Source of the DNA: a virus
Taxonomy: Duplodnaviria > Heunggongvirae > Uroviricota > Caudoviricetes
IMG/VR virus record: IMGVR_UViG_2534681941_000045
Strand: one strand, 5' to 3'
Length of the DNA stretch: 5,182 bases
How positions within the stretch are numbered: the stretch's first letter is position 1; each line of letters opens with the position of its first letter. The notes under the pieces were generated by a model that saw nothing but the letters and a program-made list of their open reading frames with translations, was not told the origin of the DNA and searched no databases. Positions 4,449 to 5,182 of this stretch are shown one piece after another. The translations under genes and the position numbers were made by a program.

Positions 4449-4969
4449 CGGCGTCTTGTCCGAGATGGCTCTCCTTAGATGACAAAAGAACGGCTTTTGT
4501 TCCAGACCCCGACAGGGTGAAAACTATTGAGCTAATTTTTAAACTCAGGATGGAAAGGCGCTCATTGAATGCAATAGCCAAGTATTTAAATGATCATGCT
4601 GTAAAGAATTTCTCAGGAAAAGAAAGTGCATGGGGGCCTTCTGTAATTGAAAAATTATTAGCGAATAAAGCTCTGATAGGTATATGCGTACCTTCATATC
4701 GTGCAAGAGGGAAAGGGATAAGTGAAATCGCTGGCTATTATCCCAGAGTCATATCAGATGATTTGTTTTACGCTGTACAGGAAATTCGGTTGGCACCTTT
4801 TGGTATTAGCAATAGTAGCAAGAATCCTATGCTAATAAATCTACTTCGAACAGTTATGAAGTGTGAGGCTTGTGGTAATACCATGATTGTTCATGCGGTA
4901 TCTGGAAGTTTGCATGGCTATTATGTTTGTCCGATGAGAAGATTACATCGATGTGACAGGCATCAATAA
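4403..4969 (+). CDS. ybcK: Large serine recombinase, recombinase domain plus zinc-ribbon; frameshifted continuation of the previous fragment (the ATG at 4403 is probably not a real start)
   Basis: 188-aa ORF carrying recombinase-domain-like sequence and a Cys-rich zinc-ribbon-like motif (CEACGNTM...YYVCPMRRLHRCD), typical of large serine recombinases. It overlaps the upstream fragment by 46 nt in a different frame, with an A5 run at 4410-4414 inside the overlap. Confidence 0.8.
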   Translation: MEEKRQDALESGTIMTASCPRWLSLDDKRTAFVPDPDRVKTIELIFKLRMERRSLNAIAKYLNDHAVKNFSGKESAWGPSVIEKLLANKALIGICVPSYRARGKGISEIAGYYPRVISDDLFYAVQEIRLAPFGISNSSKNPMLINLLRTVMKCEACGNTMIVHAVSGSLHGYYVCPMRRLHRCDRHQ

Positions 4970-5005
4970 AGAGAGATTTGGTTGATTATAATATCATTAA
5001 TGAAT

Positions 5006-5182
5006 TGAACCGCCCCGGAAATCCTGGAGACTAAACTCCCTGAGAAAGAGGTAAACAGGATGACTAAAAATACTCGTTTTTCCCCCGAAGTCCGTCAGCG
5101 GGCGATTCGTATGGTTCTGGAAAGTCAGGATGAATATGACTCACAGTGGGCGGCAATTTGTTCCATTGCCCCAAAGATTGGC
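5006..5182 (+). mobile_element. Left end of an IS3-family insertion sequence (IS629/IS1203/IS3411-like); truncated by the window edge
   Basis: The terminus begins TGAACCGCCCCGG (5006-), the TG... end typical of IS3-family inverted repeats, followed 54 nt later by an orfA-type transposase start. The sequence resembles the IS629 group left end as I recall it. Confidence 0.85.
5060..5182 (+). CDS. IS3-family transposase OrfA (HTH DNA-binding subunit), 5' partial (41 codons in window)
   Basis: Translation [41 protein letters not shown] matches the N-terminus of IS629-group OrfA proteins. Shine-Dalgarno gaaagagg upstream. Confidence 0.85.

Follow-up and report, generated by a model that had tools for sequence, protein, structure and literature searches.

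The recombinase gene ybcK of a prophage in Escherichia coli DEC4B is interrupted within codon 357 of 508 by the left end of an insertion sequence, and the part of the gene preceding this junction differs from the intact gene of other O157 genomes by exactly two missing bases. In the explanation that we consider probable, an IS1203/IS629 element of 1310 bp would have transposed into codon 357 and duplicated the target GAAT, in a plain cut-in event that would have left the remainder of both ybcK and the prophage unchanged beyond the element. Both single-base deletions would then be homopolymer consensus errors near a contig end, in which case the true DEC4B ybcK would have been hit once, not three times. 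The stretch of DNA analyzed here, hereafter referred to as the window, comprises 5182 nt, all of which are 100% identical by sequence match to positions 4063-9244 of locus L005, which is contig AIFL01000027.1 of the draft assembly GCA_000249395.2 of E. coli DEC4B. This contig ends 1 nt beyond the end of the window, inside the IS. DEC4B belongs to O157:H7 and was isolated from a human in Denmark in 1987 (PMC3146454).

The ybcK gene and its prophage setting

Based upon comparison with complete E. coli genomes, the window can be placed in a defective lambdoid prophage integrated beside icd. The gene order is int, xis, O, P, ren, emrE, a small ylcJ-type ORF, and ybcK (from 3939), and the genes relevant to the present analysis are as follows:

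1-1143, minus strand: int, encoding a lambda-type integrase with Arm-binding and Phage_integrase domains
1473-2297, plus strand: replication protein O gene, with the N-terminus missing according to sister-genome annotation
3362-3694, plus strand: emrE, a multidrug efflux gene, between ren and ybcK
3759-3881, plus strand: YlcJ-family ORF of 40 aa, between ren and ybcK
3939-5005, plus strand: 5' part of ybcK, codons 1-357 of 508, identical, apart from two 1-bp gaps, to the gene annotated as 'recombinase family protein'/ybcK in O157 genomes

Within the O gene, especially at window 1720-1835, there are 4 or 5 near-identical short repeats of the form ACC[CT]GAATCAGGTAA, which look like lambdoid origin iterons. 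Further to the right, the emrE/YlcJ block is AT-rich, having ~36-37% GC compared with 47% further left in the window, and this AT-rich block suggests that emrE, the YlcJ ORF, and ybcK may constitute a separately acquired cargo module.

The intact O157 allele of ybcK (L002 5040-6566) is 1527 nt long and encodes 508 aa, in good agreement with the roughly 500 aa that an earlier note on this DNA had expected for an intact ortholog, and the exact 508-aa O157 YbcK protein was found in at least 999 contigs. The intact ortholog contains three Pfam domains: PF00239 Resolvase (residues 4-161, E = 5e-19), PF07508 Recombinase (residues 191-284, E = 2e-14), and PF13408 Zn_ribbon_recom (residues 302-357, E = 8e-8). 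By this domain content, ybcK is predicted to encode a large serine recombinase; the annotations say only 'putative recombinase'. In the window, the 169-aa product of the first ORF is also marked PF00239, and the Recombinase and zinc-ribbon regions are both present, but they are spread across shifted frames. With the IS cutting the gene at codon 357 of 508, the window copy is a gene remnant of the large serine recombinase family and not a functional member of it.

Genes named ybcK are found in E. coli prophages such as DLP12 in K-12 and the icd-adjacent prophage in O157:H7, and it is the O157 allele to which the window DNA is identical, apart from the two gaps. With the ybcK of the O157 icd-adjacent prophage, the window shares the same three Pfam domains as well as its neighbors, which are ren, emrE, and ylcJ upstream and ybcN, ninE, ybcO, and rusA downstream. 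In the vicinity of the first frameshift, window 4371-4451 is a 98.8% match to the annotated ybcK of K-12 MG1655. Unlike the intact prophage ybcK, the window gene is both interrupted by an IS at codon 357 and affected by two frameshifts that are absent from complete genomes.

Two missing bases and a premature stop

When aligned with the intact gene of L002 and with the IS-bearing gene of strain F7386 (NZ_CP038360.1; L001), the window exhibits exactly two single-base gaps and zero substitutions. The gaps and the stop codon that follows the second of them are located as follows:

4410-4414, plus strand: first frameshift, A6 to A5, codons 158/159 (...SWKKKRQ...); A6 in all complete-genome orthologs
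4961 (4960/4961), plus strand: second frameshift, CC to C, codon 342 (CCA, Pro); GACAGGCCATC of the orthologs becomes GACAGGCATC
4967-4969, plus strand: TAA stop ending the frame opened at 4403 (...HRCDRHQ*); not the native gene end

Chance is not at issue here, since the lesions come from direct comparison with orthologs. As assembled, the window ybcK consists of three reading frames, which extend from 3939 to 4448, from 4403 to 4969, and from 4960 into the IS. The stop at 4967-4969 exists because one C has been lost at window 4961. At this site, the intact O157 allele reads ...HRCDRPSIKRDLVDYNIINELLFNCSKIQ..., continuing ...CDRPSIKRDL... to residue 508, and the intact YbcK accordingly reads ...HRCDRPSIKRDLVDYNIINELLFNC... 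past the position of the window stop. What the earlier note had observed in the letters of the window is therefore upheld in full. Translation confirms both that the recombinase frame ends at 4967-4969 (...CDRHQ*) and that the shifted frame stays open from 4960 across the IS boundary. The gene did once run past 4969, as had been proposed, and the second 1-bp indel, which had been predicted near 4958-4966, resolves upon alignment with the intact and IS-bearing orthologs to the single missing C at 4960/4961. Had the stop been native and the IS intergenic, intact orthologs would have ended at 4967-4969 as well; they instead continue, and the IS lies inside codon 357. A compensating double frameshift is ruled out, as both events are 1-bp deletions and the frame is not restored.

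An insertion sequence within codon 357

Defined in L001 against the empty site in L002, the inserted element is 1310 bp long (L001 7109-8418), and its left end corresponds to window 5006. The earlier note had placed the left end of an IS3-family element at precisely this base and had viewed it as truncating the recombinase, which proved to be exact, with the cut falling inside codon 357. The window contains the following parts of the insertion:

5002-5005, plus strand: GAAT, left copy of the target-site duplication (ybcK nt 1066-1069, codons 356/357)
5006-5182, plus strand: left 177 nt of the IS3-family element (IS1203/IS629), 100% identical to L001 7109-7285
5060, plus strand: ATG start of the transposase orfA, the first 41 codons of which lie in the window and are too short for a Pfam hit

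The element begins with TGAACCGCCCCGG and ends with CCGGGGCGGTTCA, thus having TG...CA ends. Its left inverted repeat is TGAACCGCCCCGGAAATCCTGGAGA (from window 5006) and the reverse complement of its right repeat is TGAACCGCCCCGGGTTTCCTGGAGA, with 22 of the 25 positions matching. In L001, the element is both preceded and followed by GAAT, of which the empty site of L002 contains a single copy; for DEC4B, the left copy alone is visible. At L001, RefSeq labels the element 'IS3-like element IS1203 family transposase', which is encoded by a joined CDS for which a programmed frameshift and an AL1L pseudoknot are annotated, and the precomputed Pfam table lists HTH_Tnp_1, HTH_21, and rve as its domains. 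This agrees with the IS3-family arrangement, in which a first transposase ORF with a helix-turn-helix domain overlaps a second one with the DDE/rve catalytic domain and a -1 programmed frameshift joins the two. Judging from these features, the element is assigned to the IS3 family as a member of IS629/IS1203, the name IS1203 being that of the RefSeq annotation.

The TG with which the IS begins restores codon 357 (TTG, Leu) at the junction. The frameshift-free ORF truncated by the IS is consequently 365 aa long and comprises 357 native residues followed by NRPGNPGD from the IS. The cut is located at the end of the zinc-ribbon domain (residues 302-357) and removes the C-terminal 151 residues of the protein.

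Among the insertion sequences of E. coli O157:H7, IS629/IS1203 is the most abundant, and its insertions in prophage genes are a well-documented source of O157:H7 strain diversity and are used for strain typing. IS629 and its isoform IS1203 generate target duplications of 3-4 bp, and prophages harbor 62% of the IS629 copies of O157 genomes (PMC3271280). When compared with IS629/IS1203 in general, the element of F7386, whose first 177 nt are those of the window, exhibits nothing unusual: it is 1310 bp long, it has TG...CA ends, imperfect inverted repeats, a 4-bp duplication, and a two-frame transposase, and it is located in a prophage. The ybcK::IS1203 pseudogene is itself already known, as the exact case is annotated in complete RefSeq genomes; a literature search combining IS629 and ybcK yielded no publications.

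The far side of the insertion

An identical 80-nt junction is present in six complete O157 genomes, namely F7386, strains 147, 148, and 149, Balcarce_14.2, and 9.1_Anguil. In F7386, the last 152 ybcK codons start directly after the IS, and this 3' fragment is followed by ybcN, ninE, ybcO, rusA, ylcG, Q, holin, lysozyme, rzpD, and bor, all of which are 100% identical to and collinear with the IS-free genome. PGAP annotates a ybcK pseudogene pair around IS1203 in the six complete O157:H7 genomes, with the same junction and flanks as in the window and a 'recombinase family protein, incomplete' on either side of the IS. Unlike the window, all six lack both 1-bp deletions. Two of the checks suggested in the earlier note can thus be answered from sister genomes, where the other end of the IS and its target duplication were found (L001; 1310 bp with GAAT on both sides) and where the recombinase sequence resumes past the IS with its last 152 codons.

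That the window ends within the IS is due to the draft contig breaking off at this point, the IS being a multi-copy repeat. Contig breaks within a multi-copy IS are a normal outcome of draft assembly. Another draft genome contains the mirror image of the DEC4B contig (L017, MBNZ01000083.1), which consists of the last 141 nt of the IS and then the ybcK 3' end. The 152-aa product of the ybcK 3' fragment was found in nine contigs, and DEC4B is not among the three representative places listed for it. By analogy with the sister genomes, the prophage in DEC4B itself is presumably collinear past the IS as well. A simple insertion in DEC4B predicts that the right end of the IS is followed by GAATTGCTTTTTAATTGTAGC / GAATTGCTTTTTAATTG (the ybcK 3' end), with the far-side sequence being ...CCCGGGGCGGTTCAGAATTGCTTTTTAATTGTAGC.

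The earlier note had also suggested that the IS may mark a rearrangement breakpoint for the rest of the prophage. Such a breakpoint or deletion in DEC4B could arise, for example, via IS-IS recombination and would leave the ybcK 3' end and the remaining prophage elsewhere. The contig does end inside the IS, which puts the far side in DEC4B out of view, and there are many IS629/IS1203 copies that could recombine, with 12-22 matching places listed per O157 record for queries that contained only 40-177 nt of the IS. However, collinearity and the 4-bp target duplication are preserved in all six of the complete genomes that share the junction, and the DEC4B flank is base-for-base identical to theirs, except for the two deletions. 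A contig break is also what would be expected of a multi-copy IS, and L017 exhibits the complementary break. The suggested breakpoint is therefore not borne out by the genomes sharing the junction, which display a plain insertion, the GAAT duplication, and collinear downstream genes, and we regard a rearrangement in DEC4B as very unlikely.

The nature of the two deletions

The deletions were examined with short queries centered on each of them, such that only an exact match could reach ≥99% identity. No exact match to the A5 deletion was found in the 1,399 complete genomes carrying the segment and none to the single-C deletion in the 1,418 complete genomes carrying that segment. Between the DEC4B contig and F7386, the two deletions are the sole differences over 9,245 nt, again with zero substitutions. 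Eight contigs encode the frameshift-free, IS-truncated product of 365 aa. No exact entry for what the second window ORF encodes, at either 188 aa or, starting from an internal ATG, 174 aa, was present in the protein collection, and there was no independent sighting of the C deletion. Both deletions occur in homopolymer runs at ~770 nt (A) and ~220 nt (C) from the contig end, in a region that is AT-rich (37% GC vs. 47% for window 1-3300). The DEC4B-series genomes may have been 454-sequenced, a point that was given no weight as evidence.

Unlike the C deletion, the A5 variant has been assembled more than once. The 169-aa product of the A6 to A5 frameshift is encoded by ~13 contigs from unrelated samples and alleles (window 4410-4414; L004, L006-L012), which include Logan assemblies of recent SRA runs, one metagenome-like assembly, and DLP12-like loci with PBP-family and AraC-family genes downstream. 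L010 carries an O157-type allele with A5, the normal CC, and no IS. Given that A6 is found in the IS-bearing sisters and that L010 combines A5 with the absence of the IS, the A5 state arose independently in DEC4B. From these distributions, A5 appears to be either recurrent sequencing noise or recurrent slippage/homoplasy and no lineage marker. In another of the loci with A5 (L003; GCA_033660325.1, JAWVHR010000003.1), icd is split into 361 + 55 aa, int is 261 aa, and there are five gaps vs. the window. L003 looks like an unpolished, indel-rich assembly and illustrates how artefact frameshifts arise.

The earlier note had described the recombinase as a multiply hit pseudogene. Of this description, the IS hit is corroborated, whereas neither 1-bp deletion is, as both are absent from the complete genomes surveyed (1,399 and 1,418), the six sisters among them. 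Most likely, the two deletions are draft consensus errors, but they may instead be genuine mutations private to DEC4B, with replication slippage at the short runs being tolerated either because the IS had already inactivated ybcK or because the gene was dispensable anyway. The latter scenario would make the phrase 'multiply hit pseudogene' literally true, and several observations are in its favor. Both of the two differences in 9,245 nt fall within the 1,067-nt ybcK fragment (p ~0.013 under uniform placement), and longer runs in the window, comprising A7 at 1782-1788 as well as several 6-nt runs, are free of errors, unlike what would be expected of a purely length-driven error. Furthermore, a miscall of CC as C is a less typical homopolymer error than one of A6 as A5, and the occurrence of A5 in several independent datasets implies that slippage at the A6 run may be genuine. 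Conversely, zero substitutions in 9.2 kb vs. the sisters signifies a tiny divergence time, such that two indels in 1 kb would be unexpected from neutral decay. Neither deletion is shared by the ~1,400 complete genomes or by the 8 contigs encoding the IS-truncated ORF, and both sites are located <780 nt from a contig end caused by a repeat, a position at which the consensus tends to be least reliable. Taken together, we consider genuine private mutations to be a credible reading, yet clearly less probable than errors of the draft consensus. It is also conceivable that the frame changes are functional, with programmed ribosomal frameshifting or A-run phase variation serving to regulate recombinase expression. 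This would be consistent with the position of the first shift in an A-run and with the recurrence of A5 in several datasets. However, neither allele contains a canonical X XXY YYZ slippery heptamer (GAAGAAAAA(A)CGG), A6 is uniform among the ~1,400 complete genomes, which have a single ORF of 508 aa, the deletions do not compensate each other, and the IS cuts the gene anyway. A run of 5-6 A is also short for transcriptional slippage or phase variation. A regulatory role for the frame changes is thus exceedingly improbable.

Further IS1203 insertions around ybcK

Three further independent 1310-bp IS1203 insertions were encountered in or beside ybcK in other O157 genomes (L013 1722-3031, L016 1262-2571, and L014 3327-4635):

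Z1813/Z1814: ybcK nt 180-182, same orientation, copy 100% identical to the F7386 element
AP026104.1: ybcK nt 636-638, opposite orientation, copy 100% identical to the F7386 element
Strain 1613: ~260 nt downstream of the ybcK stop, same orientation, copy 99.9% identical to the F7386 element, with one gap

Each of the three exhibits a 3-bp overlap, consistent with a target duplication. Together with the site in the window, there are four independent IS sites within ~1.9 kb across different O157 genomes. One could envision the ybcK region as a regional hot spot for IS629/IS1203 and/or the A6 run at codons 158/159 as a slippage-prone site by which the recombinase is repeatedly knocked out. We view this as quite unlikely. 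If either were true, it would signify that this prophage recombinase, although otherwise conserved, is repeatedly selected against or targeted.

Significance

Whether real or not, the two deletions change nothing functionally in a gene already cut by the IS. In the reading that we favor, namely a simple insertion accompanied by artefact deletions, the window exemplifies how the end of a draft contig can mimic both a breakpoint and a multiply hit pseudogene: here, the contig end results from a repeat and the frameshifts are homopolymer differences confined to a single assembly. The biological weight of the finding is small, the interruption of ybcK in DEC4B representing an ordinary IS event.
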